From Candidatus Bathyarchaeia archaeon (GTDB lineage Archaea; Thermoproteota; Bathyarchaeia; TCS64): a stretch of 64,000 nt of DNA. Both the position numbers and the translations under genes were made by a program. Within the stretch, counting starts at the first letter, position 1, and each line of letters begins with the position of its first letter. The stretch is taken from the NCBI GenBank assembly GCA_050014495.1, contig JBEKDF010000009.1, forward strand, positions 22,850-86,849. Reading direction: 5' to 3'. The notes beneath the pieces were generated by a model. That model saw nothing but the letters and a program-made list of their open reading frames with translations. It was not told where the DNA came from and ran no database searches. This document shows positions 16,615 to 43,628 of the stretch, one piece after another.

Positions 16615-17484
16615 CTAGGCACGCTTATCGATCTTGACGCCCCCTCGGGGGCCTATCGTGGCCTTAGCATGGCGGAGAGCCCAGCAGCTTATGACTATGC
16701 CTACCGGGAGAGACGCAGGGTGCCTTGCAGCCAACTCTATATGGAGGTCGAGGGCGGTCGGCCCCTCACCGAGACCCATTGCACCTATACCGAGTTCATT
16801 CACCTTACCCAGAAGCTCCTCCTCTATAGATGCTAGCTTTGGGTCTGGGTTCCTCACTTTGAATGGTTTTAGTAGCGCCTTCTTCGCGAGGAGCATGCAT
16901 AGGTCCTCACTTCCGCCGATGCCGACCCCGATGAAGTAGGGTGGGCACCCCTGTGACCCAGCCGCAGCGACGGCCTCAATCACGAACTGTTTGACGCCTT
17001 TCATCCCTAAGCCTGGTTTAAGCATTCGATGATTTGCGACATTGCTGCTCCCCCCACCCTTCGGCATGGCGATGAGCTCTAGTTCGTTGCCGGGGACCAA
17101 TTCCCAGTTGATTATTGGTACGAAGGCGCCTGTGTTATCGTTTGTGTTTCCCTTAAGCATGTCCACTGCGTTGGGTCGGATGGGGATCTCCTCGGTGGCC
17201 CGTCTAGTGGCTTTGACAAGTATCTCCTTGAGCTCAGATTTGAGTGGAAACTTGTCTCCCACCTTGACCATGAAGGCGACGACGCCGGTATCTTGGCACA
17301 TGGGCCAGCTATTCTTTCTTGCGAGTGAGGCGTCGTCCAGTATACTCTTGAGCTGAGCTTTCCCGGTTATACCCTTTGTACCCTTCATGAGCCTCTCCAT
17401 TTCCTTGATATATTCGACTGGAAGTTCGGTGGCAGCTATCCTGAGAAGCTCCACTGCTGTGTCTTCTACGATGATGTTAAGCAT
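16615..17484 (-). CDS. Class I fumarate hydratase alpha subunit (FumA/TtdA family)
   Basis: PMCQDTG, PKGGGS, GCPP, GIG.MGLG and CWALR. Confidence 0.92.
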   Translation of the reverse strand: MLNIIVEDTAVELLRIAATELPVEYIKEMERLMKGTKGITGKAQLKSILDDASLARKNSWPMCQDTGVVAFMVKVGDKFPLKSELKEILVKATRRATEEIPIRPNAVDMLKGNTNDNTGAFVPIINWELVPGNELELIAMPKGGGSSNVANHRMLKPGLGMKGVKQFVIEAVAAAGSQGCPPYFIGVGIGGSEDLCMLLAKKALLKPFKVRNPDPKLASIEEELLGKVNELGIGAMGLGEGPTALDLHIELAARHPASLPVGIVISCWALRHAKATIGPRGGVKIDKRA

Positions 17485-18093
17485 TCATTTCATCTCCGAG
17501 ATGATCCTGTCCCTATTGGCGTTCACCTTCATGCCTACATCTTGAGTTAGATTACCACCGTGGGAATCTATAGCCACTATAAGGGGTCCAAAGTTCTCTG
17601 TTTCATAGACCCAAAGGCACTCAGGCATGCCAAGCTCCTCCAACCAGAAGACATCTTTAACCTTCTTAATTCCCTTGGCTGCGAGTAGGGCAGCACCTCC
17701 CGTGAAGGCGGTATAGACGCAACCGAACTTTTGGCACGCCTTCGAGGTCCTCTCACCCATGCCACCCTTGCCGATTAGGACTGCGGGTCGGAAGGCTTCT
17801 ATAAATCTGTCCTCGAATAGTTCCATCCTTGTGCTAGTCGTGGGGCCAGCAGCTACTACCTCCCACTCCTTTCCTCTCTTCCTCATTATGGGACCGCAGT
17901 GGAAGACTCCTACTCCTTTAAAGTCTACAGGGGTCTTCTTCCCCTGCTCAAATAATTCAAGGGCCTTACTATGTGCCTCGTCCCGTGCGGTTATCACTAT
18001 ACCCGTGATGTAAATTATGTCCCCGATATTGAGCTTCCTAAGCTCCGCTTCAGGGACTGGTGTCTTGAGGTGATACTCCAAACCCCTTCTCAC
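17485..18093 (-). CDS. Class I fumarate hydratase beta subunit (FumB/TtdB family)
   Basis: TARDEAH, HCGP, AAGPTTSTRM and IGKGGM. Confidence 0.92.
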   Translation of the reverse strand: MRRGLEYHLKTPVPEAELRKLNIGDIIYITGIVITARDEAHSKALELFEQGKKTPVDFKGVGVFHCGPIMRKRGKEWEVVAAGPTTSTRMELFEDRFIEAFRPAVLIGKGGMGERTSKACQKFGCVYTAFTGGAALLAAKGIKKVKDVFWLEELGMPECLWVYETENFGPLIVAIDSHGGNLTQDVGMKVNANRDRIISEMK

Positions 18094-18365
18094 TCATTTG
18101 AACAGGTCTCAACAGCGATTTAAAACCTGAGGAATTCCATGTTAGACTGGACAAAATTACCGTGTGTTTTCATCTATAATCTAAGTGGCGCTTAGAAAAA
18201 AAGTGAGTATTATCCTTGAATCACCCAAGGCTTCAAGAGATACTAAAGATCTCGTGCTACCCTAACAGTTAGCAGAACCCAAATTAATACCACATTTTCC
18301 AGAGGAAGCTGATCCCGGGCGTTTCTGAGAAAAGGTATAATATATACAGCGTTATAACTTCTGAG

Positions 18366-18785
18366 ATGTCTTCGGAAAAACAGGGGTTCATTATCCACCC
18401 CTCCCCTGATAACAAGGTTTTTCGAGACCGGATTAAGGAGCTGAGCGGAGAAAAGGTCGAACTCTGCTTCCAATGCGGTGCCTGTAGCTCGGGATGTCCA
18501 TTGACCCAGGAGATGGATTACCTCCCCAGCAAGGTGATTAGGCTGGTGCAGCTTGGCCTCGATGAAGCGCTGGACTCTAAGACCATATGGGTCTGCACGA
18601 GCTGCTTCAACTGCGAGGTCAGGTGTCCCCGCGGCATAGACATCGCCAACGTAATGGAGTCGCTCCGCCAACTAGTACTGAGGAAAAAGTACGATCGTGT
18701 GACCCTCGACCAGCTAAGTGACGAGCAATTGAAGGAGCTGCCCCAGGTCGCAATCATCAGTAGTCTGAGGAAACTAACTGCGTGA
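18366..18785 (+). CDS. hdrC: HdrC-like 2x[4Fe-4S] protein
   Basis: CFQCGACSSGCP and CTSCFNCEVRCP. Confidence 0.9.
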   Translation: MSSEKQGFIIHPSPDNKVFRDRIKELSGEKVELCFQCGACSSGCPLTQEMDYLPSKVIRLVQLGLDEALDSKTIWVCTSCFNCEVRCPRGIDIANVMESLRQLVLRKKYDRVTLDQLSDEQLKELPQVAIISSLRKLTA

Positions 18786-18792
18786 TCAAGTC

Positions 18793-19686
18793 ATGAATGT
18801 TGCATACTATCCGGGCTGCACGTTGAAGACAACAGCTAAGGAGTTTGACATAAGTACGAGGGCCTCAGCCAAAGCGCTGGGCATTAACCTCGTGGAGCTC
18901 CCACGCTGGAACTGCTGCGGTACCGTCCATGCCCTCGCGAAGGATGACGTTATGCACCACCTAGCGCCTCTGAGAAATCTCCTCCGGGTTGAGGAGGCTC
19001 AACAGAGCGGCATAGTTGACGAAAAACGTGTCATTGCCCTGTGCGCGATGTGCTACAACACATTGAAGCGGAGCAACCAGGCCTTTAACGCCGATTCGGA
19101 CAAAGCAGGGAAGGTCAAGGAGAGCATGAATAACGAGGCGAACGTCTACAGCGGACAGGTCGAGGTGGAGCACTTACTTGAGTTCCTTCGCACATATGGT
19201 TGGGACAAGGTACAGTCCCACGTCTCCAAGCCTCTGAACGGGTTGAAGGTTGCCCCATATTATGGATGCCTACTCTTAAGACCCCGAGGCATAGGAATAG
19301 ACGACGCAGACAACCCACGTGTCTTCGAGGATCTGCTAAAGGCACTAGGAGCAGAAGTAATAGATTTTGGCTATAAACAGAAGTGCTGCGGCAGCTACCA
19401 CACCGTCCACATGGTAGATGTGGTAGCAGATCTCAGTAACAGGATTCTGACGCAGGCTCAGTCTGCTGGCGCGGATCTTGTCGCCACAGCATGCCCACTA
19501 TGCGAGTTCAACCTCGGCAACAGGCAGACTGAGGTAGCCAAGAAGTATTCTAAGTTCCAAGGTATTCCAATTGTTTATTTTACCCAGCTGATGGCTCTCG
19601 CCTTCGGCCTCGGGGAGGATGATACGGCGCTCGGGATGAATAAGCCCGACCCGAGGCCTTTGCTCAGGGAGAAAGGGTTGATTTAG
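18793..19686 (+). CDS. hdrB: HdrB-like CCG-domain protein
   Basis: YYPGC, NCCG, CAMC, YYGC, KCCG and ACPLC. Confidence 0.92.
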   Translation: MNVAYYPGCTLKTTAKEFDISTRASAKALGINLVELPRWNCCGTVHALAKDDVMHHLAPLRNLLRVEEAQQSGIVDEKRVIALCAMCYNTLKRSNQAFNADSDKAGKVKESMNNEANVYSGQVEVEHLLEFLRTYGWDKVQSHVSKPLNGLKVAPYYGCLLLRPRGIGIDDADNPRVFEDLLKALGAEVIDFGYKQKCCGSYHTVHMVDVVADLSNRILTQAQSAGADLVATACPLCEFNLGNRQTEVAKKYSKFQGIPIVYFTQLMALAFGLGEDDTALGMNKPDPRPLLREKGLI

Positions 19687-19687
19687 A

Positions 19688-20377
19688 ATGACTGAGAACG
19701 GTAACAAGATGGTCACCATCTATGTGATGGGCAAGAAGCAGAAAGTACCTGCGGACCTAACTATTATGAAGGCTATGGAGTACGCTGGCCACCAGTTTAG
19801 GAGAGGTGCCGGTTGCAGGGGCGGCTTCTGTGGTGCTTGCGCAACTGTATACAGGAAGAAGGGGAGCTACAAGCTCCAGGGAGCTTTAGCCTGCCAGAAG
19901 ATAGTCGAGGATGGGATGATTATAGCCCAAATACCATTCAGCCCACAAGAGAAGGTGACCTATAAGATCAACGAGCTAAAGGCTGAGGCGAACACCTTCC
20001 TCGAATATTACCCCGAGATCGCTAGGTGTCTAGCCTGCAACACGTGCACGAAGGCTTGTCCACAGGATATTATGGTTATGGACTACGTCCAATCAGCTCT
20101 GCGCGGCGACGTCACCCAGGCCGCGAAGCTGAGCTTTGACTGCCTCGGATGCGGACTCTGCGCCATGAGGTGCCCCGCTGAGATCGTTCCCTACAATATT
20201 GGGCAATTAGCACGTCGCCTCGAGTCCAAGTATATCGAGGGACCCACCGAGCACGTCCTCAAGAGGTGCGAGGAGGTGAAAGAGGGTAAGTTCGACGCCG
20301 AGATCGAGGAGATGATGAAGATGGACAAGGCAACACTCTCTAAGAAGTACAATACGAGGGAGATGAAGATCAAATGA
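19688..20377 (+). CDS. Fumarate reductase FeS subunit-like ([2Fe-2S] plus 2x[4Fe-4S])
   Basis: GCRGGFCGAC..LAC, CLACNTCTKACP and CLGCGLCAMRCP. Confidence 0.85.
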   Translation: MTENGNKMVTIYVMGKKQKVPADLTIMKAMEYAGHQFRRGAGCRGGFCGACATVYRKKGSYKLQGALACQKIVEDGMIIAQIPFSPQEKVTYKINELKAEANTFLEYYPEIARCLACNTCTKACPQDIMVMDYVQSALRGDVTQAAKLSFDCLGCGLCAMRCPAEIVPYNIGQLARRLESKYIEGPTEHVLKRCEEVKEGKFDAEIEEMMKMDKATLSKKYNTREMKIK

Positions 20378-22029
20378 GTGGCTACATTTCAGGCTACCCA
20401 GAGTATATGCAGGATTCCATCAGGAAAGTCGCCGAGAAGAGGGGCAGCAACCTCTCGTCACATGGCATCAATGCGATGACAGCTGAGGAGAGGCAATCCA
20501 TCCTCGAGCACTTTCACCCCGACTGGAAGCCCAACATGAAGCGTCCGATAGCCATGGGGCCGAGTAAAGGGATGATGGTCCCCAACGAGGTTGCGGATAT
20601 CCTTGAGGCCCACCCACTCATAAAACCTAGTGACATAGACCTCAACCACATAGACTACGATGTCGAAGTTCTTATCATCGGAGCAGGTGGGGCAGGCTTA
20701 AGCGCTGCGCTACTTGCGCAGGAGAACGGAGTGCCCGTAGACCAGATACTAATGATCCAGAAACTCAGACTGGGAGACGCAAACTCGAAGATGAGCCAGG
20801 GGGGAATCCAGGCAGCCGACTCTTCAATTGACAGCCCCTCGATCCACTACTTGGATGTCATTGGTGGCGGTCACTATGCGAATAAGCCGGACTTAGTTGA
20901 GGCCCTCGTTAAGGATGCCCCCGATGTGATCAAATGGCACGAAGAACTAGGCGTGATGTACGATAAGAATCCCGATGGTTCTTTGCTCGAGATTGCAGGG
21001 GGCGGCACCAGCAGGAGGCGAATGCATAGCTGCAAGGACTACACTGGCTTGGAGATTACCCGTGTACTCGTGGACGAATTCATTAACCGTGGAATAAGCA
21101 ACATCGAATTTACGAGTGCAGTCGACTTCATAATGGATAGTAAGAACCAAGTCGCAGGGGCTGTCTTGTTCGATATGGAGACCGAGGAGTACCGTGTCGC
21201 GAGGGCTAAGTCGACGATTCTAGCAACTGGTGGCTTTGGCAGGTTGCACATCCAGGGTTTCGCGACGACGAATCATTACGGTGCAACGGGCGACGGTATC
21301 GTCATGGCTTACCGCACAGGCGCAATTTTGAGGGATCTTGACTCAACACAGTACCACCCAACAGGCGCTGCTTACCCGGAGCAGATTGTTGGTCAGCTGG
21401 CCACGGAGAAACTCCGTGGTAGAGGCGCTCTCCCCGTCAATAAGAATGGCGAACTATTCGTCTACCACTTGGAACCACGTGATATCGAATCCTCAAGCTA
21501 CATCAGGGAGTGCTACGAGAGGGATAACGGGATAATTACTCCGACAGGGATGCGTGCTGTCTGGCTCGACACACCGATGATCGAGATAGTAACGGGTCCA
21601 GGCACAATCGAGCGCGAGTTCGCCGCTATGTTCCGTAACTTCAAAAAATTCGGCATAGATATCAGAAAGGAGCCTATACTTGTCTTCCCCACTCTTCACT
21701 ACCAGAATGGTGGAGTTGAGATTAATCCCAACACCGAGACCAGTGTCCCCGGACTATTCTGCGCTGGTGAGGTCTGCGGTGGTGTACACGGTAAAAACAG
21801 GCTCATGGGAAACAGTCAACTAGACCTCTATGTCTTCGGACGTAGAGCGGGTAAGGCAGCTGCGGAGCACGCTAAGAATGCTTCCGTGGGCAAGCTCACC
21901 CTCGCTCACTTAGACCGCTATGAAAGGTGGCTCGCGAAGGCTGGTGTCAAAACGGATCGGAAATCCCCGATCCTTCTCCCCGAGTACAGGGGAAAGAAGA
22001 CGCTCGAACATAAATTGAACATACTGTAG
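20374..22029 (+). CDS. Fumarate reductase/succinate dehydrogenase flavoprotein (TfrA-like)
   Basis: GAGGAG, QYHPT, TEKLRG, PRD, LHYQNGG and HGKNRLMGNS; no covalent-FAD His. Confidence 0.9.
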   Translation: MSGYISGYPEYMQDSIRKVAEKRGSNLSSHGINAMTAEERQSILEHFHPDWKPNMKRPIAMGPSKGMMVPNEVADILEAHPLIKPSDIDLNHIDYDVEVLIIGAGGAGLSAALLAQENGVPVDQILMIQKLRLGDANSKMSQGGIQAADSSIDSPSIHYLDVIGGGHYANKPDLVEALVKDAPDVIKWHEELGVMYDKNPDGSLLEIAGGGTSRRRMHSCKDYTGLEITRVLVDEFINRGISNIEFTSAVDFIMDSKNQVAGAVLFDMETEEYRVARAKSTILATGGFGRLHIQGFATTNHYGATGDGIVMAYRTGAILRDLDSTQYHPTGAAYPEQIVGQLATEKLRGRGALPVNKNGELFVYHLEPRDIESSSYIRECYERDNGIITPTGMRAVWLDTPMIEIVTGPGTIEREFAAMFRNFKKFGIDIRKEPILVFPTLHYQNGGVEINPNTETSVPGLFCAGEVCGGVHGKNRLMGNSQLDLYVFGRRAGKAAAEHAKNASVGKLTLAHLDRYERWLAKAGVKTDRKSPILLPEYRGKKTLEHKLNIL

Positions 22030-22037
22030 GGATCTGA

Positions 22038-24398
22038 ATGACTGAAACACCTAGAATCGGCGTCTGGCTCTGCGAGTGTGGTGGGAATATAGGCGACGTA
22101 GTCGAGACTGATCGCGTCGTCGAGGAGCTCAAGTCCGAAGCTGCCTTCGTGAAGAAGGAGAGATACCTCTGCAGTAAACCGAGCGTTGACGCAATCAAGG
22201 AGGCTGTCGAGAAGCAGCACCTGGACAGAGTAGTCCTCGCCTGCTGTACACCTAAGATGCATAGGGAGACATTTCTGAGTAACCTCGCGGAGAAGGGAGT
22301 CAACCCCGCCTTCTTGGAGATGGTAAATGTCCGTGAGCAGTGCAGCTGGGTCCATAAAGAAGACCACGAGGGTGCGACTCTGAAGACTTTAGACCTTATT
22401 AGGGGTGCGGTGGCGCGGGCAAAGGAGTCTGTGGCACTGGAGTCGAAGAGGATGAAGGTTATCCCCGAGGCCCTCGTAATCGGAGGAGGCGTCGCAGGTA
22501 TCACTACAAGCCTTCGCCTCAGCGAGTTCGGCATGAATGTGCATCTCGTTGAGAAACGTCCCAGTATCGGTGGCCACATGATCCAATACCCGAAGGTCTT
22601 CCCGACGCTCGATTGTAGCCAATGCATACTTACACCGAAGATGGCGTCAGTAAGCCAGAGCAGGAACATTGACTTAATCACATATGCTGAAGTTGAGGAG
22701 GTCTCTGGTATCCCCGGTGATTTCAAGGCTAAGATAAGACTCAACCCACGGGGCGTAGATGTATCAAAGTGCATCGGGTGCGGTGCCTGTAGTAGGGTCT
22801 GCCCGACGAAGGTGCCCGCTGAACACGACCAAGACCTTGGCGTCAGGAAGGCGGCATATATACCCTTCCCACAGAGTGTTCCCAGCGTCTATACCATCGA
22901 CTTCGAGCACTGTATCCACTGCGGGGCCTGCGCGAAGGTTTGCCCACGGCAATGTATTGATCTTGACGATACCGGTTCCTCTAAGGAGCTGAAGGTGGGT
23001 GCCATTGTGATGGCAACTGGATTCGAGCTCTACGATCTCTCTGGGCTCATACAGTATGGCTACGGACGTTACCCAAACGTTGTGACTAGCCTCGAGATGG
23101 AGAGGATACTTGACGTCAACGGGCCGACGGGGAGCCAACTCATCGTCCCGAAGACCGGTAGGCAGGTTAAGACCGTGACTTTCGTCCTCTGCGCCGGAAG
23201 TAGAGACACTGAGGTAGGACGCAGTTACTGTAGTAGAGTCTGCTGCCTTTACAGTATGAAGCAGGCCCAGCTCCTGAGAGACCGTGGCGTCGACGTTTGG
23301 ATTCACTATATAGATATCAGGTCACCAGGTCGTCGCTACGAGGAGTTCTACAGGACTACACAGGAGAAGGGCGCGATGTTTGTGAAGGGGAAGGTGGCTG
23401 AGATTGTCCCAGACGGGGAGCAGGTGCTCGTGCGCAGCGAGGACATGATGCTTAATAAGATGCTTGAGTATTCGAGCGACCTTGTTGTCCTGGCTCCACC
23501 GATGGTAACGACCCCTGAGACCCTGAAGCTCGCTGAGATGCTGCGTGTGCCTGTTGATGAGGATCAGTTTGTATTGGAGAGGCATCCGAAGCTCGACCCG
23601 GTGTCCACGAAGAGAGACGGAATCTTCGCGGCAGGCACGGTTGTTGGTCCAAAGGATATCCAGTCAACAACGGCGGAGGCGGAGGGGGCGGCGATGAAGG
23701 TGGTTAACTTCCTCCATGTGGACAGGGTCATCGAACCTAACAAGGTGTTCCTTGCACACCCGGAGCTGTGCGATGGTTGTGCTAAGTGTGTGGGTTCTTG
23801 CCCCGAGTCTGCGATTACCCTCTCAGATGGGAAAGCGTTGGTGAACGAGATAATGTGCACGGGCTGTGGTGCCTGTGTGCCATCTTGTCCTAGGAATGCC
23901 TTGGATCAGCAAGGCTTGAGTGAGACTCAGATCAAGGCTCAGATAAGAGGGGCCCTCGAGGGATCGAAAGCTGAGCTTAAGATACTCACATTCGTCGAGA
24001 AGGAGGTAGCGTACACAGCGGTCGACCTCGCCGGGCTGGCGAGGCTACCCTACCCAAGCAGCATCAGGATCATCCCGATGCCCTCACTTGCGAGGCTGAA
24101 GCTGGAGCACCTACTCCAAGCCTTCGCCTACGGGGCGGATGGGGTGATGCTTCTCGAGGCACCATCTCATGAAGGTCCATATGGTCATGCTCATGTGCTG
24201 GCGGAGGAGAGAGCCGATGAGTACAGGTGGGCACTTGAGGATCATGGCGTGGATAGTAGTAGGATGTGGTTCAGCAGGGTCTATGTTCCCGACTGGAGGA
24301 AGCTAGAGAGGGTCTTCAAGACCTTCAACGACATCATTGCTGGGGAGGGCCCGATAGGAGAAGATGCTAGGAAAAAGCTCCGCGAGGAGCTCCAATAA
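22038..24398 (+). CDS. hdrA: HdrA with a C-terminal degenerate MvhD-like domain
   Basis: CECGGNI, GGGVAG, FPTLDC, YCSRVCC..K and ferredoxin motifs; C-terminal AVDLAGLARLPYPSSIRII lacks the MvhD cysteines. Confidence 0.9.
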   Translation: MTETPRIGVWLCECGGNIGDVVETDRVVEELKSEAAFVKKERYLCSKPSVDAIKEAVEKQHLDRVVLACCTPKMHRETFLSNLAEKGVNPAFLEMVNVREQCSWVHKEDHEGATLKTLDLIRGAVARAKESVALESKRMKVIPEALVIGGGVAGITTSLRLSEFGMNVHLVEKRPSIGGHMIQYPKVFPTLDCSQCILTPKMASVSQSRNIDLITYAEVEEVSGIPGDFKAKIRLNPRGVDVSKCIGCGACSRVCPTKVPAEHDQDLGVRKAAYIPFPQSVPSVYTIDFEHCIHCGACAKVCPRQCIDLDDTGSSKELKVGAIVMATGFELYDLSGLIQYGYGRYPNVVTSLEMERILDVNGPTGSQLIVPKTGRQVKTVTFVLCAGSRDTEVGRSYCSRVCCLYSMKQAQLLRDRGVDVWIHYIDIRSPGRRYEEFYRTTQEKGAMFVKGKVAEIVPDGEQVLVRSEDMMLNKMLEYSSDLVVLAPPMVTTPETLKLAEMLRVPVDEDQFVLERHPKLDPVSTKRDGIFAAGTVVGPKDIQSTTAEAEGAAMKVVNFLHVDRVIEPNKVFLAHPELCDGCAKCVGSCPESAITLSDGKALVNEIMCTGCGACVPSCPRNALDQQGLSETQIKAQIRGALEGSKAELKILTFVEKEVAYTAVDLAGLARLPYPSSIRIIPMPSLARLKLEHLLQAFAYGADGVMLLEAPSHEGPYGHAHVLAEERADEYRWALEDHGVDSSRMWFSRVYVPDWRKLERVFKTFNDIIAGEGPIGEDARKKLREELQ

Positions 24399-24531
24399 CC
24401 CCTCATTCAAGAGTTCTAAACTCTATAATTCAAAATTATACACGTGGAGATGTTTCTTAGGATGTGGAATTAGAAGTCAATTAGCTCGTTGTTTCATTGC
24501 TTTTGAAATGATCGTCGCGCGTACGAACGAC

Positions 24532-25826: not shown

Positions 25827-26051
25827 GTTTATGAGCTTAAATAAAAAATCGACTAAACTTCAGGTTAATGAGAGCTGATAAAAAAAGTAGTCATCTACAG
25901 AAGATCCTCTAATGTTGATTCTCCCATATTATTACAGAGATAATTCAGCTATCAACCGCAATGTGGACCCAATGAATGACCAGAATTGTTTGTGACTACA
26001 CCTCAATCTACTCGCGTAAGTGTTATCCTTACAATGTATCCCTATTTACCT

Positions 26052-27392
26052 ATGCCAGTCACAAAGGAAGAGCTTCTCAAGGAAGCCCAGAAGTGGAGTA
26101 AGATCGCTCCACCCTACCATGCCTTCTACCACGGAAAGGTCGAGGTCATGCCCAAATGCGCTATTAGGACCCTACAGGACTTCAGCATCTGGTACACCCC
26201 TGGTGTAGCCCAGGTTTGCAAGGACATAGAGAAGGACAAGGAGCTTGCCTTCGAGGGGACGAGCAAGTGGAACTATGTCGCCGTCGTCAGCGACGGCACA
26301 AGAGTACTCGGACTCGGCGATATCGGCGCCCAGGCCGGAATGCCCGTGATGGAGGGCAAGGCTCTTATCTTCAAGTATCTGGGCGGAGTCGATGCCTTTC
26401 CCATATGCCTTAGCACAAAGGACCCGGAGGAGATAATTCAGGCTGTTAAGTGGATAGAGCCAACCTTCGGCGGGATTAACCTTGAGGATTTCTCGAGCCC
26501 CAAATGCTTCTACATCCTAGAGAGACTCAGGAAGGAGATGCCCATCCCCGTCTGGCACGATGACCAGCAGGGTACCGCAGCGGTGATACTTGCCGCTACC
26601 TATAACGCATTAAAGATGGTGGGTAAGAAACTCAACACCGCGAAGATAAGTATAGTCGGCGTCGGAGCGGCTAATACTCGTACCTACTATGTCCTCAAGT
26701 CAGCGGGGGCAAACCCGAAGAACATCCTCATGGCTGACTCCACTGGTATCCTCAGCCGGACTAGGAAGGACCTTGAGGGCAGCTACAAATGGGAAATTGC
26801 TAAGGAGACCAACCCAGACGGCTTGGAGGGTGGTATTAAGGAGGCCCTCGAAGGAGCCGACATCCTTATCGCTGCTAGTAAGTCTGGCCCAGACGTCATT
26901 AAGAAGGAGGACATAAAGGGAATGGCATCGAACGCCATAGTATTCGCCTGCGCTAACCCCATTCCGGAGATCTGGCCATGGGAGGCTTCGGAGGGTGGTG
27001 CAAAGGTCGTTGCAACAGGGCGCAGCGACTTCCCTAACCAGGTAAACAACAGCCTCGTCTTCCCCGCTATATTCCGCGGAGCACTCGATGTCCGAGCCAA
27101 GACGATAACCGACGAGATGTGCATAGCCTCAGCTACGGCCCTCGCCAAGTTCGCCGAGGATAAGGGACTTACTGAGAAATATATAATTCCCAGCATGGAT
27201 GAGTGGGAGATCTATCCCCTTCAGGCTACCGAGGTAGCGTTGAAGTGCATAGAGCAGGGCCTTGCACGCAAGAAAGCTAGTAGGGCAGAGATTTACGACG
27301 GTGCAGCCGCCATAATCGAAAGGACGCAGAAGATCGTGAAACTACTGATGGCGCAGGGCTTTATTCCTTCTCCGCCCCCTGAGCCTAAGTGA
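26052..27392 (+). CDS. NAD(P)-dependent malic enzyme
   Basis: [36 protein letters not shown] and [12 protein letters not shown]. Confidence 0.94.
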
Positions 27393-34123: not shown

Positions 34124-34134
34124 GGCGATTATTT

Positions 34135-37100: not shown

Positions 37101-37137
37101 CCAGGTGAAGGCCGCCTTAGAGGAGGCGAAGCAATGA
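34135..37137 (+). CDS. hdrA: Large double-FAD HdrA-like protein
   Basis: Two GGGxxG FAD domains, internal CWCGINI domain and ferredoxin motifs. Confidence 0.9.
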   Translation: MKKTGSVMVVGGGIAGIQAALDLADSGFKVYIVEREPSIGGVMTQLDKTFPTNDCAMCILAPKLVSAGRHPNIQLLTYSEIKSLQGKEGNFTATILKKARHVDPAKCKGCGDCATKCPTSAIDTYNANLNDRKAVYIRFSQAVPLTYAIDKDKCLGCGICSEVCKADAIKYDDVDEELKLNVGSVILAPGFEAFDPSKLSELGYGRYPNVVSSIEFERILSATGPYRGVVLRPSDGDMPKKVAFLQCVGSRDARVGNPYCSGVCCMYAIKEAVIAQEHNPGLEASVFFMDIRAFGKEFDDYYTRAEHEHGIKFIRSRVGHIEQDPDTDSLNLTYEEGGEVKQNRYDMVVLGVGLNPPKSAEQLSKAIGFTLNKYGFAETKLFSPLETSRKGVYVCGAFSSPKDIPDSVAQASGAAAKAAKAISSVRGTQVNPIMFPTERDIANEEPRVGVFVCWCGINIGGVVNVPSVAAYAKKLPHVAYAEENLYTCSQDTQDRIKNTIIEYKLNRVVVASCTPRTHEPLFRATLREAGLNEYLFEMANIRDQCSWVHMHEKEAATKKAEDLIRMAVAKASLLQPLEKHKIHVTPGALIVGGGVSGMTVALEIADQGYEVHLVEKEAELGGNMKRIKFLPSGEDPAAELAKLEARVRKNPNIRLYTGTQVVEIDGYVGNFETTLVSTEKETQIKHGVVIVATGGVEYTPKEYEYGKHPDVMTQFQLEERLHGGYKPNTVVMIQCVGSRNEEHPNCSRVCCTGAVNNALKVKEANPAADIYILYKDMRTYGFKEDYYRAAANKGVIFIRYDDGHKPEVLAQGGLKVKVLDLVLMENVVIEPDALVLSAGVLPAADNKRLAGMLKVPISKDGFFLEAHMKLRPLDFATEGVYLCGLAHGPKTIDECISQASGAAARALTILSHDEIEAEGAIASVDEDACSGCQMCAAVCEFKAIEMVKKGDKIHSHVIAEVCKGCGVCAATCPSGAITVGHFTDLEILSQVKAALEEAKQ

Positions 37138-37565
37138 GCGAATACGAGCCCAAGCTAGTCGGCTTCCTCTGCAACTGGTGCAGCTACGCTGGCGCAGACC
37201 TCGCCGGAGTCAGCAGGTTCCAGTACCCGACTAGCCTGCGTATAATACGAGTCATGTGCAGCGGCAGGGTCCACCCCGCACACATATTGGAAGCTTTCAA
37301 GGATGGTGCCGACGGCGTCTTAGTCGCAGGGTGTCACACCCCAAGCGACTGCCACTATATCTCGGGAAACTTCAAGGCGCAGCGGCGTGTGGCCATGGTC
37401 AAAAAGCTCATGGAGCAGCTTGGCATCGACCCAGAGAGGCTTCGCCTCGAGTGGATAAGCGCAGCCGAGGGAGAAAAATTCGCGAAGACCATAAGGGAGA
37501 TGACAGAGGACCTGAAGAAGCTTGGTCCGAGCCCGGTCGTTAAGTCCCTTAGGAAGGCTGACTGA
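37134..37565 (+). CDS. mvhD: F420-non-reducing hydrogenase subunit MvhD
   Basis: FLCNWCSYAGAD, MCSGRV, GCHTPSDCHY and WISAAEG. Confidence 0.93.
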   Translation: MSEYEPKLVGFLCNWCSYAGADLAGVSRFQYPTSLRIIRVMCSGRVHPAHILEAFKDGADGVLVAGCHTPSDCHYISGNFKAQRRVAMVKKLMEQLGIDPERLRLEWISAAEGEKFAKTIREMTEDLKKLGPSPVVKSLRKAD

Positions 37566-37566
37566 C

Positions 37567-38076
37567 ATGGAACAATCTGAGATAAGGATCACCACCGAGG
37601 GGAAAGAGTTCAGGAACGAGGTGATGGCGACCCACGGCGCGGACAAGTTGATGCTGTGCTATCAGTGCGGCACGTGCAGCAGCGACTGCCCGGTAGCTAA
37701 AAGAGTCCCTGAGTTCCGCCCACGTAACATCGCTCGCTTAGCCATCTATGGGCAGAAGAACCGCCTCCTCGACGGCGACCTCGTCTGGCTATGCGCTGGT
37801 TGCTACACCTGCTACGAGAGGTGCCCCCAGAAGGTGCACGTTAGCGAGATAGTATCCGCCCTCAGGCAGCTAGCCCTAAGGGAGGGTAAGCTGCATCCCA
37901 CAATCAAGTCTATAGTCACAAGCATCCCTAGGCTCGGATACATCAGCGAAATCGGTGAGTTTGAGAACGAGATGCGAGGCGAGGACGGGCTACCACCCGC
38001 ACCCACTCCCGCCACAGAGGAGATCAAAGCTATAATGAAGAAGACCGGCATCCTCAGCCGCGTCGGGGGCGAGTAG
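37567..38076 (+). CDS. hdrC: HdrC-like protein
   Basis: CYQCGTCSSDCP and CAGCYTCYERCP. Confidence 0.9.
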   Translation: MEQSEIRITTEGKEFRNEVMATHGADKLMLCYQCGTCSSDCPVAKRVPEFRPRNIARLAIYGQKNRLLDGDLVWLCAGCYTCYERCPQKVHVSEIVSALRQLALREGKLHPTIKSIVTSIPRLGYISEIGEFENEMRGEDGLPPAPTPATEEIKAIMKKTGILSRVGGE

Positions 38077-38078
38077 AG

Positions 38079-38939
38079 ATGGAGTACGCCTTCTTCGTCG
38101 GATGCACCGTGTTGAGTAGGTTACCCGGCTACGAGAAGTCCGCACGCAAGGTAGCGGAGAAGCTGGGTGTCGAGCTCGTCGACATGCCCGGCTCAAGCTG
38201 CTGCGGTACAACTTATATGGAGACCCTGGACCGTAAGACGGCCCTCGCCCTCGCAGCACGTAACATCGCGATAGCGGAGGAGATGGGCCTTGACATAGTC
38301 ACTGTATGCAATGGCTGCACCGAGAACCTCACAAAGACAAACAAGACGCTCAAGGAGGACCCTACGCTCCGAGCCGAGGTCAATGAGATACTCAAGGATA
38401 CCGGCAAACAGTTCAAGGGCACCGTCAACGTCAAACACTATGTTAGGATGCTCAAGGAGGATGTCGGCCTCGACAAGGTCAAGGCAGCATCCGTGAAGCC
38501 ATTCAAGGGCCTCAGAGTGGGTGCCCACTACGGTTGCCACCTCCTAAAGCCTAGCGACGAGATGCTCTTCGAGGACCCTAACGACCCAAAGGTGCTCGAT
38601 GACCTGATCCACGTCACTGGTGCGGAGAGCATCGACTACCCGGGCAAGACTGAGTGTTGCGCCGGCCCTGTGATGGGCATCAGGGAGAAGGTTACGTGGG
38701 ATGTCGGTATGGGAAAGGTCGAGACCGTCAAGAGGTACGCCGACGCCATGACGACCTGCTGCCCATTCTGCTACATAACATATGAGAGATGCCAGTTCAT
38801 GACTGAGAACAATCCAGGCCTCCCAGTCGTCCACATCACCCAGCTACTCGGCCTCGCAATGGGCCTCTCAGCTGAAGAGGTTGGGTTGAGCTCAAACAAG
38901 GTGGATGCCAGCGTGCTTCTGGCGAAGCAGGAGACATAA
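38079..38939 (+). CDS. hdrB: HdrB-like protein
   Basis: FVGC, SCCG, CNGC, HYGCH, ECCAG and CPFC. Confidence 0.9.
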   Translation: MEYAFFVGCTVLSRLPGYEKSARKVAEKLGVELVDMPGSSCCGTTYMETLDRKTALALAARNIAIAEEMGLDIVTVCNGCTENLTKTNKTLKEDPTLRAEVNEILKDTGKQFKGTVNVKHYVRMLKEDVGLDKVKAASVKPFKGLRVGAHYGCHLLKPSDEMLFEDPNDPKVLDDLIHVTGAESIDYPGKTECCAGPVMGIREKVTWDVGMGKVETVKRYADAMTTCCPFCYITYERCQFMTENNPGLPVVHITQLLGLAMGLSAEEVGLSSNKVDASVLLAKQET

Positions 38940-38941
38940 CA

Positions 38942-39910
38942 ATGGAGAAGCTCAAGTTCGGGTTCTACTGGGCAGCAAGTTGCGGAGGCTGCGAGATCGC
39001 CGTCCTGGACATCGACGAGAAGATACTCGATGTGATGCAGATCGCAGACATCGTCTTCTGGCCCGTAGCCATGGATGTGAAGTATAAAGACGTCGAGGCC
39101 ATGGCGGACGGCTACATGGATGTCTGCTTCTTCAACGGGGGCATACGCAACTCGGAGCAAGAACACCTAGCGAAGATGCTGCGCAAGAAGTCGAAGTACA
39201 TCGTTGCTTTCGGCGTTTGCGCCCAGCTAGGCGGAGTCCCCGGTCTCGCAAACCTCAGCAACAGGAAAGATATCTTCGAAAGGGTATATCACACAACGGA
39301 GTCGACGGACAACATCGCAAATACGGAGCCGCAGACCAAGCACACACTCCCCGAGGGTAGCTCCGAGATACCTGTCTTTCAGGAGACCGTCAAACCCCTA
39401 GACCATGTCATATCCGTCGACTACTATCTCCCCGGTTGCCCGCCGCCACCTAAACTCATCTTCAACGCAATCGACGCCATCGCGAAGGGCCAACTACCCA
39501 AGAAGGGCAGTATTCTCGCCCCTGAGCTCGCCGTCTGCGATGAATGCCCCAGGAAGAAGGAGGAGAAGAAGATATCCTCCATCAAGAGGATCATCGACTT
39601 CACACCCGAGCCAGAGAAGTGTCTGCTAGAGCAGGGACTCGTCTGCATGGGCCCAGCCACACGTGGGGGATGCGACGCGAAGTGCCTCGGCGCGAACATG
39701 CCCTGCACAGGCTGCGGAGGAGCATGCCCAGGAGCCATAGAGCAGGGATCAGCCATGATCAGCGCCCTCTCTACTGTTCTCGGCATCGACGACGAGAAAG
39801 GCGAGGGCTACGATGTAGACGCCGTAGTGGCGCAGCTGAAGGATCCCGTCGGGACCTTCTACAAGTACGCGTTACCAGCTTCAATTATAGGTAGGAGAAT
39901 CAAAAAATGA
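38942..39910 (+). CDS. mvhG: [NiFe] hydrogenase small subunit MvhG
   Basis: SCGGCE, FGVCA, LPGCPP and CMGPATRGGC. Confidence 0.92.
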   Translation: MEKLKFGFYWAASCGGCEIAVLDIDEKILDVMQIADIVFWPVAMDVKYKDVEAMADGYMDVCFFNGGIRNSEQEHLAKMLRKKSKYIVAFGVCAQLGGVPGLANLSNRKDIFERVYHTTESTDNIANTEPQTKHTLPEGSSEIPVFQETVKPLDHVISVDYYLPGCPPPPKLIFNAIDAIAKGQLPKKGSILAPELAVCDECPRKKEEKKISSIKRIIDFTPEPEKCLLEQGLVCMGPATRGGCDAKCLGANMPCTGCGGACPGAIEQGSAMISALSTVLGIDDEKGEGYDVDAVVAQLKDPVGTFYKYALPASIIGRRIKK

Positions 39911-41364
39911 AGACCATAACAATCGACCCCATCACGCGGCTAGAGGGCCATGGAAAGATCAGCATCTTCCTCAATGACCAGGGCAATGTGGAGAACGCCT
40001 ACCTACAGATTCCAGAGCTTCGCGGCTTTGAGAAGTTCTGTGAAGGTCGCAGAGCGGAGGATATGCCAATAATCACTCCCCGTATCTGCGGAGTCTGCCC
40101 CGTAGCCCACCATTACGCTGCAACTAAGGCACTGGACGCCTGCTTTAACGTCGAGCCAACCGAGACGGCGAAGAAGCTCAGGGAGCTGATGTATACTGGC
40201 TACATCATCTACGACCACACTCTCCACTTCTACTTCCTGGGAGGTCCAGACTTCGTCGTTGGCCCAGATGCTCCCCCCTCGGAGAGGAATATCTTCGGTG
40301 TCCTCAAGCGGGTAGGTCTCGACGTCGGCAGGGATGTGATAAAGCACCGTGCGTACGGACAGAGGATAACCGAGATCATCGGTGGGAAGGCGACTCACCC
40401 AACTTGTGGAGTCCCCGGCGGCATAAGTAAGGGACTCACCGAAGAGGAGAGAAACAAGATCGAGGAAATGGCGCGGAGCAGTGTGGAGTTCGCGAAATTC
40501 ACACTCAGCGTCTTCAATGACATAGTGCTCAAGAATAAGCAGTATGTTGACATGATCTTCAGCGACCCCTACCGCTTAGATGCCTACAACATGGGCCTAG
40601 TTGACGAAAATAACCACGTCAACTTCTATGATGGTGACATCAGAGTAACCGATCAGCAGGGTGAGGAGCTCGAACGATTCAAGGCTGCCGACTATCTCGA
40701 CCATATCGCCGAGCGTGTCGAGTCGTGGACCTACAGCAAGTTCACTTACCTTAAGAAGGTGGGGTGGAGGGGGCTCACAGCGGGGCCGGAGAGTGGTATA
40801 TACCGCGTCGGTCCATTGGGTAGGCTCAACGCGTCAGAGGGCATGGCAACGCCGCTGGCGAATGCGGAGTACAAGAGGATGTACGAGACTCTAGGCGGTA
40901 AGCCAGTCCAATCGACCCTCGCATTCCACTGGGCCCGCCTAGTGGAACTTCTATACGCAGCTGAGCGCTCCCTCGAGCTCAGTACCGACCCATCGATAAC
41001 AAAGTCCGACCTTCGTAACCCCATAGGGAAGCCCGGCGAAGGCATCGGGGTCGTCGAGGCCGCTCGCGGCACACTCTTCCACCACTACAAGCTCGACGAT
41101 GACGCGATGGTGAAGAAGGCGAACCTCATAGTGGCAACCACGAACAACTACGCTGACATCTGCTGTAGCGTCCGCGATGCCGCCAAGGGACTAATCAAGG
41201 GAGGCGAGGTGAACGACGGCCTCCTTAACAGAGTGGAGATGGCGTTCCGCGCATACGATCCCTGCTTCGGCTGCAGTACTCACAGCCTACCTGGTGAGGG
41301 GCCTCTCTCAGTCGAGGTCATCGGCGCAGACGGAAGCCTCGTAAAGAGTCTCAATAGGTACTAA
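39907..41364 (+). CDS. mvhA: [NiFe] hydrogenase large subunit MvhA (group 3c-like)
   Basis: [16 protein letters not shown] and DPCFGCSTH followed by a cleavable C-terminal extension. Confidence 0.94.
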
Positions 41365-41510
41365 TTTTTTTTGGCTCCGACTACCTCAAAGCGAAGAAGT
41401 CGACGGTGAAAGAGGCTCATCTTTACGAGGCATCCGACAAGGTATAGAAGTTAGCGCAAGCATGAATGTGAGACAAGACCTTTAGAGGCGGACGGGTTTG
41501 ATTTCTATTC

Positions 41511-41966
41511 ATGAGAACCCTGGTCATCGGAGTTGGCAACCTTCTGAGGACCGATGACGGGGTTGGAATCCACATAATCAAGGAGCTAAACGAGTTACAC
41601 CCAGATGTTGACACCGTCGACGCTGCTATGGGGAGTGTGGAGATACTAGAAGCCATGAAAGGATATGACCGTGTCATCATCGTCGATGCTATCGAGACAG
41701 GTGCAGAGGCGGGCACAATCTTTAGTGTTAACATCACACAAGGTGAGGATCCCCCCAAGATCACGTACAGCCACGGCACTGATCTGATTACTATTTTACG
41801 CCTCGGACACCAGCTCTACGGCGAAGAGATGCCCAAGGAGATCATTCTCCTCGCCATAGAAGCTCAAGACACAACCACCATCGGAGACGAACTCACAGAA
41901 AAGGTGCAGAGCGCGGTCAAAAAAACAATCAAAACCATACTCACTCTTCTAACGACGAATCGATAG
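41511..41966 (+). CDS. Hydrogenase maturation protease
   Basis: IGVGNLLRTDDGVG, IIVDA and SHG. Confidence 0.92.
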   Translation: MRTLVIGVGNLLRTDDGVGIHIIKELNELHPDVDTVDAAMGSVEILEAMKGYDRVIIVDAIETGAEAGTIFSVNITQGEDPPKITYSHGTDLITILRLGHQLYGEEMPKEIILLAIEAQDTTTIGDELTEKVQSAVKKTIKTILTLLTTNR

Positions 41967-42092
41967 ATGATTGATAGAGCTATTTGGAACCTATCCGTAT
42001 ATCAAGAAGCTCGGATACAACCTTTGAAAGTTTTTAATGTTGTGAAGAATACTTCTAAAACATTATTAACCCTACCACTCCTCCCTTTAAGT

Positions 42093-42524
42093 ATGGTCAA
42101 GCTAGAAGGATTCAATTTTCCCGAAGACCTCTACTATCACCGCGAGCATATGTGGGTCAAAGTCGAGGGTGACAAGGTGCGTGTTGGTTACAACGACTGG
42201 GCCCAAAAGGCGGCAGGTAAGCTACTTAGCCTCAAGACGAAGCGACCAGGCGCCCCTGTCGAGATGGGGAAAACACTCGGCAGCATCGAGTCCGGTAAGT
42301 GGGTCGGCAGCCTCAAGGTCCCCGTAAGCGGTGAACTAGTGCAGCTGAACGAAGATGTCCTTAAGACCCCTAACCTCATCAACAGCGACCCCTACGGAAA
42401 GGGTTGGGTTGCTATAATTAAGCCCTCCAAGCTTCAGGACGAGCTAAAGACTCTGATCAGTGGAAAAGACACCGCTGGTCTAGAGGCTTGGCTCAAGGAA
42501 GAGCGGGCCAAGGCGAAGCAATAG
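42093..42524 (+). CDS. GcvH-like lipoyl-carrier protein (LbpA-like)
   Basis: YHREHMWV, ESGKWVG lipoyl-Lys motif and N.DPYGKGW; no gcvP/gcvT nearby. Confidence 0.88.
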   Translation: MVKLEGFNFPEDLYYHREHMWVKVEGDKVRVGYNDWAQKAAGKLLSLKTKRPGAPVEMGKTLGSIESGKWVGSLKVPVSGELVQLNEDVLKTPNLINSDPYGKGWVAIIKPSKLQDELKTLISGKDTAGLEAWLKEERAKAKQ

Positions 42525-42536
42525 GCGGATGAGACT

Positions 42537-43628
42537 ATAGAGAACTGGCGCCTCATCGATATGGGCCACCCCGAACCCCTAATAGCTCAGACCTTCTATG
42601 AATCCGTCGCCGAGGCAGTGGAGAAGGGATCAAGCCCTAATACCCTCATCATGCTCCAGCCTGGAGCGCCGTACGCTTGCGTCGGATATCATCAGGACAT
42701 TGAGAAAGAGATAGATCTCGAATACTGCCGTAGCATTGGTCTCCCAATCATTCGAAGGAGCCAGGGTGGGGGTGCAACCTATCTAGACGGTAACCAGGTT
42801 TTTTATCAAATAGTAGCCAAAAATACAGAGGCATATCCCCCCACTGTCGATGCGATGTTTAAAAAGCTGTTAGCGGTCACAGTCGAGACCTACAGACGTC
42901 TCGGTGTTCCTGCAGAGTTTAAACCGCTGAACGATGTAGTCGTCAAAGGTAAAAAGATCAGTGGAAATGGTGCCAGCATGAATGGGTCGACTTCCATCTT
43001 GGTCGGCAATATCATCCTCGATATGAACTACGACATGATGGCCCGCGTACTCAGGGTCCCCGACGAGAAGTTCCGTGACAAAATGGCTAAAAGTATGAGG
43101 GAGTGGGTGAGCAGCCTTAAGCGCGAGTTGCCTAACCCGCCAGACGGGGAGGAGGTCAAACGAGTCTACACCAAAACCTTCCAAGATCTCCTAGGGGTCC
43201 AGCTAACCAATGCGGAGCCAACTGCGGAGGAGTGGCGGATCTACGATACTGAGACCAAGCCGCGAAACCAGAGTCGTGAATGGCTCTACATGGAGGCCCC
43301 CTATTCTACGCGCAAACCCGGCAGGGCAGTGAAGATAGCCCACGAGGTCAAGATCGTTGAATCGGATTATAAAGCGGGTAAACTCATCCGTGTGAGAGCT
43401 GAGATGAAGGGTGAAGAGATACTCGACTTAAGGATAACCGGTGATTTCTTCTCGATTCCTAAGGAGGCTATATTCCACCTTGAGGAAGTCCTACGGGGCA
43501 TTCATTTAGACGAAGCGTTACTCCGTTCGGAGATAGGACAATTCTATGCGAAGGAGAAACCTGAGATCCCCGGTGTAAGCCCAGAGGACATGGTCCAGGC
43601 CATATTGAAGATCAAAACAATGCTCTGA
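42537..43628 (+). CDS. lplA: Lipoate-protein ligase (LplAB-type)
   Basis: WRLID, RRSQGGGATY, NDVV..KKISG and a C-terminal accessory domain (ITGDFF); start uncertain (ATA 42537 or ATG 42561). Confidence 0.88.
   Translation: MENWRLIDMGHPEPLIAQTFYESVAEAVEKGSSPNTLIMLQPGAPYACVGYHQDIEKEIDLEYCRSIGLPIIRRSQGGGATYLDGNQVFYQIVAKNTEAYPPTVDAMFKKLLAVTVETYRRLGVPAEFKPLNDVVVKGKKISGNGASMNGSTSILVGNIILDMNYDMMARVLRVPDEKFRDKMAKSMREWVSSLKRELPNPPDGEEVKRVYTKTFQDLLGVQLTNAEPTAEEWRIYDTETKPRNQSREWLYMEAPYSTRKPGRAVKIAHEVKIVESDYKAGKLIRVRAEMKGEEILDLRITGDFFSIPKEAIFHLEEVLRGIHLDEALLRSEIGQFYAKEKPEIPGVSPEDMVQAILKIKTML

Follow-up and report, generated by a model that had tools for sequence, protein, structure and literature searches.

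A probable LbpA relative, basic and cysteine-free, beside hydrogenase-linked heterodisulfide reductase genes of a Bathyarchaeia archaeon, and a fumarate reductase module with its own HdrB

Genes for HdrABC are common among sediment archaea that do not make methane, and the locus described here addresses the question of which disulfide the encoded enzymes act on. It lies in a stretch of 64,000 nucleotides (the window) from a Candidatus Bathyarchaeia archaeon (GenBank assembly GCA_050014495.1, contig JBEKDF010000009.1, positions 22,850 to 86,849 of the forward strand), part of contig C9 of a 3.1 Mb assembly with 95.95% completeness and 7.5% contamination. Between positions 16615 and 43628, a preliminary description had named fumarase, an hdrC-hdrB-FeS-flavoprotein-hdrA operon, malic enzyme, three further HdrBC pairs, HdrA variants, MvhADG and its protease, a GcvH-like gene (motif ESGKWVG) and a lipoate ligase, and had joined them in one H2-driven fumarate reduction circuit shuttled by a lipoyl protein. 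All of these genes were recovered, with a two-subunit Fe-S fumarase, four HdrB, four HdrA-type and two mvhD genes, when the 66 open reading frames of the window were scanned with Pfam and NCBIfam profiles. The locus is a compact test set of one 143-residue carrier, a ligase and four HdrBC pairs. We favor, with a probability of roughly 0.4, a reading with two semi-independent modules: the lipoyl carrier and its ligase would serve the Mvh-linked HdrB proteins, and the fumarate reductase would be wired to its own HdrC-HdrB-HdrA and feed 2-oxoglutarate synthesis.

The carrier and its ligase are encoded at the end of the stretch:

42055..42070, plus strand: TATA-like element, putative promoter of carrier and ligase (similar element in 8 of the 10 closest loci listed)
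42093..42524, plus strand: LbpA-type lipoyl carrier, cysteine-free and basic (ESGKWVG, K69; H-protein fold, tree position, isoelectric point)
42537..43628, plus strand: fused lipoate:protein ligase of the LbpA-associated type (PF21948; catalytic lysine retained; ATA start probable)

The likeliest start of the carrier is ATG 42093, which gives 143 amino acids and matches the family length. Its predicted fold is that of an H protein (predicted local distance difference test 92.5; template modeling score 0.84 to PDB 1onl), and K69 aligns with K64 of E. coli GcvH, the lipoyl lysine in the hairpin. The carrier has no cysteine, is 35% identical to the true GcvH of the same genome, which is encoded in a gcvT-gcvH pair, and has an isoelectric point of 9.2 versus 4.7 for that protein. 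The acidic residues D43, E46, D68 and D86 of E. coli GcvH are replaced by K48, R51, S73 and K91. The charge of the surface patch is +5 in the carrier, compared with means of +4.3 in LbpA-type proteins and -0.4 in H proteins linked to gcvT/P. Profile NF002270 was narrowly passed (119.7 versus 117), as it was by one LbpA-type protein, and TIGR00527 failed. The named relatives are from Ca. Bathyarchaeota/Bathyarchaeia. The ligase belongs to a clade of 22 rows that also contains ligases encoded next to LbpA-type genes, and the ligase positions R47, R140, K143 and K272 are Y, S, G and G in it. The charge swap between carrier and ligase is the LbpA/sLpl(AB) pattern of bioRxiv 10.64898/2026.10.01.755906. 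No ATG, GTG or TTG stands at the family start of the ligase; an in-frame ATA (42537-42539) precedes an E-x-W-R motif, and ATA-E-x-W is shared by 7 of the 10 closest loci (L145, L146, L149-L152 and L154). The ligase therefore probably starts at the ATA codon at 42537. L148, a close relative, has the order protease-carrier-lipS2-lipS1-ligase, with a ligase from another clade than that of the window.

To place the carrier, 224 H-like proteins were gathered by similarity to it, independent of gene context, and a hand-picked subset of 84 rows was analyzed with IQ-TREE (140 alignment columns, deeper forks unsettled). Proteins with an xKAVS motif (the GcvH side) were split from those with an xKW motif (the KW and LbpA-type proteins) with support of 99/98. 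The cysteine-bearing LbpA-type proteins (13 rows, 100/99), so labeled from their cysteine pair and gene context in trees without a biochemically characterized LbpA sequence, nest among cysteine-free KW proteins. By these sequence comparisons the carrier is a paralogue separate from true GcvH, basic and cysteine-free, and probably a relative of LbpA. A role as the GcvH of the cell was rejected, as the genome has the separate gcvT-gcvH pair.

Gene neighborhoods were then counted, with the eight H-like proteins that lack the lysine kept separate and loci L145-L208, which have no family codes, excluded. For the KW proteins, with the LbpA-type clade set aside, a gene for a CCG domain, as in HdrB, lies within 5 kb at 43/79 loci in 19/26 families; where the flanks were almost complete the count is 30/50. 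For gcvT/P it is 0/79. On the GcvH side the corresponding figures are 4/61 for CCG genes and 23/61 for gcvT/P. As a background, 1.7% of the genome of the window lies within 5 kb of a CCG gene. In the synteny check proposed in the preliminary description, the carrier type was thus near CCG/HdrB genes in most families and near gcvT/P at no locus. Because of this pattern, protein-bound lipoamide is a reasonable candidate substrate of HdrB. The architectures around the carriers differ and comprise Mvh-Hdr (L113, L127), membrane hydrogenase-HdrB (L046, L080, L090), GlcD-CCG and NarI-CCG arrangements. HdrB2, HdrB3 and HdrB4 of the window each have close relatives adjoining a carrier in other families; orthologues of HdrB3 occur as hdrC-hdrB-carrier in L041 and L043 and as carrier-hdrC-hdrB in L127. 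Within the genus the carrier is downstream of mvhA-protease at 6 of 8 loci. A structure prediction for HdrB3 with the carrier scored 0.00, which speaks neither for nor against binding.

Two further groups of H-like proteins were observed. The eight in which arginine or methionine replaces the lipoyl lysine group in a single clade (L041:6761-7426, L043:9165-9593, L106, L107, L109, L113); 7/8 have a CCG gene within 5 kb, a lysine-bearing carrier is often close by, and they are possible non-lipoylated adaptors. The other group, on the xKAVS side (L050, L052, L076, L089, L124, L128 and others), stands beside a flavoprotein resembling CoA-disulfide reductase or NADH oxidase, not beside gcvT/P; this neighbor may replace E3.

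The Mvh and Hdr genes of the stretch outside the fumarate module, with the protease gene, are the following:

27439..28332, minus strand: HdrB2 (PF02754; sister of a carrier-adjacent HdrB in L054)
28329..28811, minus strand: HdrC2 (Pfam/NCBIfam scans)
29017..29499, plus strand: HdrC3 (Pfam/NCBIfam scans)
29496..30374, plus strand: HdrB3 (orthologues immediately beside the carrier in further families)
30376..31683, plus strand: HdrA2, flavin domain with inserted ferredoxin (Pfam/NCBIfam scans, alignment)
31680..33353, plus strand: HdrA3, second HdrA-type module (Pfam/NCBIfam scans)
33356..34123, plus strand: MvhD1 with a C-terminal extension (PF02662; cysteines intact)
34135..37137, plus strand: HdrA4, two flavin domains, about 1000 amino acids (Pfam/NCBIfam scans, alignment)
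37134..37565, plus strand: MvhD2 (cysteines intact)
37567..38076, plus strand: HdrC4 (Pfam/NCBIfam scans)
38079..38939, plus strand: HdrB4 (E 1e-68 to PDB 5odc_B; CCPAPG and CCGAGGG methanogen loops replaced)
38942..39910, plus strand: MvhG, hydrogenase small subunit (top match VhuG)
39907..41364, plus strand: MvhA, [NiFe] large subunit (both CxxC motifs; T8 run behind)
41511..41966, plus strand: hydrogenase maturation protease (PF01750, TIGR00072)

From hdrC3 to mvhA, 11 genes are packed at intervals of -4 to +11 bp, and hdrC2B2 are on the minus strand. Downstream of mvhA follow a T8 run, 146 bp, the protease and another 126 bp before the carrier, with a TATA-like element 24-30 bp upstream of its ATG. 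The statement that the carrier directly follows the Mvh genes and protease was overdrawn. The stretch from 16615 to 43628 is more than one operon.

Residues that mark the bifurcating MvhAGD-HdrABC complex were checked. MvhA has intact NiFe ligands, the ligands of the non-cubane clusters of HdrB are retained, and so are the lysine and glutamate near the HdrA flavin; the second flavin domain of HdrA4 lacks the flavin lysine. The HdrA genes encode modules of the methanogen type (435-1000 amino acids). The short-HdrA layout of the sulfur oxidizers' Hdr-like system (sHdr) occurs in L138 and L212, not in the window. In all four HdrB proteins of the window the methanogen-type loops CCPAPG and CCGAGGG, which we take to have a role in binding CoM-S-S-CoB (the heterodisulfide of coenzymes M and B), are replaced. 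Three loci of Ca. Baldrarchaeota/Odinarchaeota (L176, L177, L198) have a carrier 64-67% identical to that of the window, convergent with hdrC-hdrB-hdrA, and HdrB with methanogen-type loops. The idea that loop sequence alone tells the substrate was rejected on account of the Baldrarchaeota loci. About 110 additional C-terminal residues of MvhD1 have no Pfam match at 1e-5 and possibly form a helix-turn-helix.

How the carrier would work can be outlined as follows. The ligase would attach lipoate to K69, and the lipoate would be scavenged; lipoate synthase was not found in the genome. Electrons of H2 would pass through MvhAGD to HdrA2, HdrA3 and HdrA4, which would send one part to ferredoxin and the other to the lipoamide disulfide bound at HdrB2, HdrB3 and HdrB4. 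This step might also proceed in the backward direction and release H2. The potential of lipoamide is about -290 mV. That of CoM-S-S-CoB has been revised to -281 mV (PMC12054007), so lipoamide would be an equally good acceptor.

We asked whether the fumarate module depends on this carrier, as the circuit of the preliminary description requires. Its genes and the malic enzyme gene are:

16615..17484, minus strand: Fe-S (class I) fumarase alpha (PF05681; NF004885, 299 bits versus a cut-off of 276)
17485..18093, minus strand: Fe-S fumarase beta (PF05683; TIGR00723 above cut-off)
18366..18785, plus strand: HdrC1 of the fumarate module (dicluster; TIGR03290 under cut-off)
18793..19686, plus strand: HdrB1, two CCG domains (PF02754; ten cluster cysteines retained)
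19688..20377, plus strand: Fe-S subunit resembling the N-terminal half of TfrB ([2Fe-2S] motif and dicluster, without CCG domain)
20374..22029, plus strand: fumarate-reductase-type flavoprotein, TfrA-like (top NCBIfam match TfrA NF004900, 318 bits, cut-off 718)
22038..24398, plus strand: HdrA1 fused to an MvhD-like domain (PF02662 at 649-767; [2Fe-2S] cysteines lost)
25986..27392, plus strand: malic enzyme (PF00390, PF03949)

The fumarase genes are divergent from the five-gene hdrC1-hdrB1-FeS-flavoprotein-hdrA1 unit, whose gaps are -4 to +8 bp. All seven catalytic or substrate-binding residues of E. coli FrdA that were tested (H232, T244, E245, R248, R287, H355 and R390) are retained in the flavoprotein, and H44, the histidine that binds FAD covalently, is N137. 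Loss of this histidine in relatives of FrdA and SdhA favors one-way fumarate reduction. The flavoprotein accordingly looks like a one-way fumarate reductase, the direction being favored because the covalent-FAD histidine is absent. L-aspartate oxidase and membrane SdhA were considered and rejected, since the top match is TfrA, the operon with FeS and hdrB1 is fixed and it contains no anchor gene. FeS and HdrB1 jointly have the domain content of TfrB, with HdrC1 and HdrA1 extra; scores are below the Tfr family cut-offs (TfrA 318/718 bits, TfrB 33/385).

The flavoprotein was found in 36/40 genomes of the order, 13/111 other genomes of the class and 16/301 phylum-wide. FeS-flavoprotein-hdrA1, or the portion within the locus, is kept in 29/29 order-level loci and hdrB1 in 27/29, and the HdrB proteins adjacent to the flavoprotein form one clade (19 rows, support 99). 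To judge by this clustering, the HdrB1 clade is dedicated to the fumarate module. Around more distant homologues of the flavoprotein 20 loci were fetched, of which 5 have korAB and 4 fumarase beside the module; an H-like gene is adjacent in 4, and 16 have none nearby. Three single operons (L284, L285, L298) combine fumarase, hdrA, mvhDGA, hdrC, one hdrB, FeS and the flavoprotein. These single-HdrB operons, the adjacency of korAB and the 16/20 loci without an H-like gene point to a module that can pass electrons from HdrA directly to fumarate, serving a reductive C4 route, in line with what has been suggested for bacterial Hdr-Flx clusters. Outside the order, moreover, the carrier type is absent from 7/13 genomes with the flavoprotein. 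A dependence of the fumarate module on the carrier is not borne out. The parts of the circuit that stand are a carrier separate from GcvH and near HdrB/CCG genes, and a likely one-way fumarate reductase.

In the two-module reading, fumarate would be supplied by malic enzyme and fumarase, the flavoprotein would reduce it to succinate, and SucCD and KorABG would take succinate to 2-oxoglutarate, consuming reduced ferredoxin. A korA-korB-korG-sucC-sucD operon is present on C5, and blastp with E. coli queries gave no match to gltA, mdh or aspA in the genome. Fumarate reduction may mainly serve 2-oxoglutarate synthesis. Because the cluster cysteines of the MvhD domain of HdrA1 are lost (alignment to MvhD), the module would be unable to take H2 electrons through this domain and would need another input. 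Electrons could enter at HdrA1, from ferredoxin or F420H2, or from thiols at HdrB1; the carrier would be one possible, non-obligatory thiol donor.

The genome was then examined outside the window. The preliminary description was right that gcvP/gcvT, E2/E3, mcr and dsrC are missing here, as none had a family match among the 66 reading frames scanned; genome-wide, gcvP/gcvT, E2/E3 and dsrC all have counterparts. There are the gcvT-gcvH pair on C21, two gcvPA/PB pairs and an operon for E1/E2 of a 2-oxoacid dehydrogenase, which includes a ligase-family gene. An E3-like protein and a second LplA are encoded as well, making two ligase-family genes besides that of the window. A DsrC/TusE-like protein with C-terminal cysteines is encoded beside a DsrE-like gene (G000 C14:25700-26372). 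The description as a probable non-methanogen is supported: in this genome, 96% complete, McrA and ComA were not found and ComE was not above the cut-off. McrA was also absent from five carrier-bearing genomes of other Thermoproteota families. The genome has one ComB-family phosphatase, as do several non-methanogen controls. It encodes six HdrB proteins, one adjoining a group-4-type membrane hydrogenase, and many 2-oxoacid:ferredoxin oxidoreductases.

Several results weigh against a lipoyl carrier that serves HdrB. The tree sides with LbpA-type proteins at 99/98, although a single clade of carrier and GcvH was not rejected by the approximately unbiased test (p 0.08). The T8 run, the long gaps and the conserved TATA-like element suggest that carrier and ligase are transcribed separately from the mvh-hdr run, from a promoter of their own. 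Related genomes in the neighborhood counts are non-independent samples, and in the window's own family only 7/29 carrier loci have a CCG neighbor. Many carrier-adjacent CCG proteins are GlcF/HdrD-like and unproven as disulfide reductases. The carrier type occurs in 35/40 genomes of the order and 27/111 others of the class (about 62/151), at a cut-off of E 1e-50 set after a score gap was seen and with 6 of the 27 outside-order calls made without a motif check. Since CCG proteins occur in 136/151 class genomes, most Bathyarchaeia run Hdr without this carrier. Two carrier-bearing genomes, G001 (87% complete) and G034 (91%), have no CCG match. LipA was not found in the genome, nor were LipS1/S2 by blastp; close LipS2 orthologues are present in only 3/59 genomes of the order, with weaker matches in 27/59. 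The DsrC-like protein is a rival carrier.

The circuit as first drawn, in which Mvh-Hdr reduces the carrier lipoamide while making reduced ferredoxin and HdrB1-FeS-flavoprotein re-oxidizes the same carrier with fumarate, is in our view rather unlikely. In its favor, the MvhD domain of HdrA1 has no cluster cysteines, which closes this route for H2 electrons. Modules with a degenerate HdrA are accompanied by a carrier (35/40 genomes of this order; G047; families f49/f63/f65), and where the HdrA is of standard length this carrier type was found in just 1/5 families, a small pattern noticed post hoc; however, the f49/f63/f65 cases probably have one origin, and their H protein is on the GcvH side. 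In L142, L280, L281 and L286 an H-like gene with a basic patch stands with the module on one side and, on the other, a membrane hydrogenase that has a second HdrB, and at L287, a cut locus, such a gene adjoins the module; L284, L285 and L298, with their single HdrB, offer no second site for a loop within the operon. Of 6 congeners with both genes, 4 have carrier and flavoprotein on one contig at distances of 13-48 kb, but the count is 0/24 for genomes of the order outside the genus (fragmented assemblies), so that the linkage was found only within the genus. Outside the order the carrier occurs in 6/13 genomes with the flavoprotein versus 21/98 others (Fisher p 0.08, with non-independent kin), and no carrier match was obtained in G140, a one-contig genome (92% complete) in which the flavoprotein is present. 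Calculated from reduction potentials, electron transfer from H2 to ferredoxin plus lipoamide yields -23 to -7 kJ per 2 H2 at 1 bar and +23 to +38 at 10 Pa, where fumarate as the final acceptor gives -39 to -24 kJ per 2 H2. As the fumarate sink turns the reaction downhill at 10 Pa, it helps under direct or carrier wiring alike. A wider proposal is that CCG-domain enzymes of TACK/Asgard archaea that make no methane generally use cysteine-free LbpA-type proteins as their protein-bound disulfide currency and that the sulfur oxidizers' LbpA came from this stock, with the carrier here closing the membrane-free H2:fumarate circuit and the ferredoxin driving 2-oxoglutarate synthesis; taken whole, we hold it to be unlikely.

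Carrier and ligase might instead be a unit for scavenging and relaying lipoate to glycine cleavage and 2-oxoacid dehydrogenase, merely parked by Hdr, which would use a small-molecule disulfide or the DsrC-like protein. GcvH and E2 are lipoate clients in a genome with no synthase found, the pair stands beside unrelated genes such as ribosomal operons across most of the family, apparently with its own promoter, and LipS1/S2 genes flank such carriers in several loci. We nevertheless find this improbable: two other ligase-family genes exist, one of them within the dehydrogenase operon, the carrier surface is basic where GcvH is acidic, the CCG neighbors in 19/26 families would go unexplained, and the DsrC-like protein was found only in the window's genus (8/59 genomes of the order). 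Highly doubtful is an oxidative course during amino-acid fermentation, from 2-oxoglutarate through succinate, fumarate and malate to pyruvate, with HdrA confurcating electrons from succinate and ferredoxin to H2 and the carrier loaded with reducing equivalents as glycine or hydroxy acids are oxidized. Malic enzyme normally decarboxylates, the 2-oxoacid:ferredoxin oxidoreductases are numerous and GlcD-like dehydrogenases often adjoin carriers, but the missing covalent-FAD histidine favors the opposite direction and, judged by reduction potentials, the reaction from succinate to H2 runs steeply uphill unless the temperature is more than moderate. Succinate oxidation was weighed for a homologous cluster by Kohtz et al. 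2022 (PMC9723716).

Other features of the window and genome were noted. An argH-like lyase gene (43631-45136, minus strand) is convergent with the ligase, a placement that several congeners share. It is one of three argH-like genes of the genome, of which the argG-adjacent one is on C1, and it may encode another fumarate-releasing lyase. As a sign of bacterial coenzyme M synthesis it was rejected, the three proteins scoring 203-244/575 bits for XcbC and ComA being absent. At G000 C13:46777-57035, hdrC-hdrB-hdrA lie next to the group-4-type membrane hydrogenase, and this HdrA also has a cysteine-less MvhD domain. A third H-like gene at G000 C32:23240-24498 is followed by two DGC-type cysteine-rich genes, with a heavy-metal-transporter-like gene upstream (named by sequence appearance). 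At 58001-64000 of the window G+C shifts from 41% to 64%, and a short transcription factor B gene, a CDC48 fragment and two transposase pieces stand at the contig end; this part is read as mobile DNA or misassembly. A phage-type integrase lies next to a DUF5615 gene at 1033-2418. The RNA search listed no RNA runs, and a sigma-70 promoter/terminator scan, a model ill-suited to archaea, was at chance level.

A search of freely available full texts found no paper testing a lipoyl protein as an HdrB substrate beyond sHdr and none describing this Bathyarchaeia locus. The replacement of the heterodisulfide by lipoamide, advanced in the preliminary description, is plausible for the Mvh-linked HdrB from neighborhoods and surface and had been proposed for Culexarchaeia by Kohtz et al. 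2022 (PMC9723716). The core ideas are already in print; the added value is comparative support and testability. If HdrB turns the carrier over, one of the commonest subsurface archaeal groups would have a new electron carrier, and the origin of LbpA would be explained.

Among known systems, methanogen MvhAGD-HdrABC (PDB 5odc) shares with the window all subunits, the HdrB cluster cysteines and the HdrA lysine/glutamate near the flavin; the window differs in the HdrB substrate loops, in its four HdrB and four HdrA-type genes and in that no Mcr was found. The thiol:fumarate reductase TfrAB of Methanothermobacter, said to have been described by Heim and co-workers in 1998, is reportedly likewise a fumarate reductase with non-covalent FAD plus Fe-S and CCG domains. 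In the window the functions of TfrB are divided between FeS and HdrB1, HdrC and HdrA are added, and coenzyme M synthesis was not found.

A role of LbpA in sHdr is established (Cao et al. 2018, PMC6067878; Tanabe et al. 2023, PMC10332631; Kümpel et al. bioRxiv 2026). LbpA has two conserved cysteines near the N- and C-terminus, which some archaeal LbpA lack (PMC6067878). The sHdr-LbpA system with sLpl(AB)/LipS1/LipS2 resembles the window in a basic lipoyl carrier of GcvH fold, a dedicated ligase and CCG-domain Hdr-like partners. Unlike it, the window has neither the conserved cysteine pair nor the short sHdrA-hyp gene set (hdrC1B1A-hyp-hdrC2B2), and combines full-length bifurcation-type HdrA with hydrogenase in an anaerobe.

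For bacterial Hdr-Flx clusters, bifurcation to ferredoxin and fumarate has been proposed, direct or through a thiol carrier. They include the tubeworm-symbiont korABCD-tfrAB-flx-hdr cluster (Rubin-Blum 2019, PMC6315080; Mitchell 2024, PMC11636981) and the succinate operon of Pseudoclostridium thermosuccinogenes with an Hdr-Flx-linked fumarate reductase (PMC7282089). Compared by gene content, they too have a soluble fumarate reductase accompanied by HdrABC, fumarase and 2-oxoglutarate:ferredoxin oxidoreductase. Their input is NADH/Flx and the suggested carrier DsrC-like, whereas the window has Mvh in trans and the cysteine-less MvhD domain.

A precedent in idea is the Ehe cluster of Ca. Culexarchaeia (Kohtz et al. 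2022, PMC9723716), for which a GcvH-bound lipoyl group was proposed as the HdrB disulfide. Like the window, it brings together HdrB, an HdrABC set, an SdhA-like flavoprotein and a GcvH-like gene in a non-methanogen. L142, presumably from Culexarchaeia, has this layout, and its flavoprotein, FeS and HdrB1 are 59%, 57% and 43% identical to those of the window. The Ehe cluster has a membrane-bound group 4 hydrogenase and an H protein on the GcvH side, whereas the window has soluble MvhAG, a carrier on the LbpA side and its own ligase.

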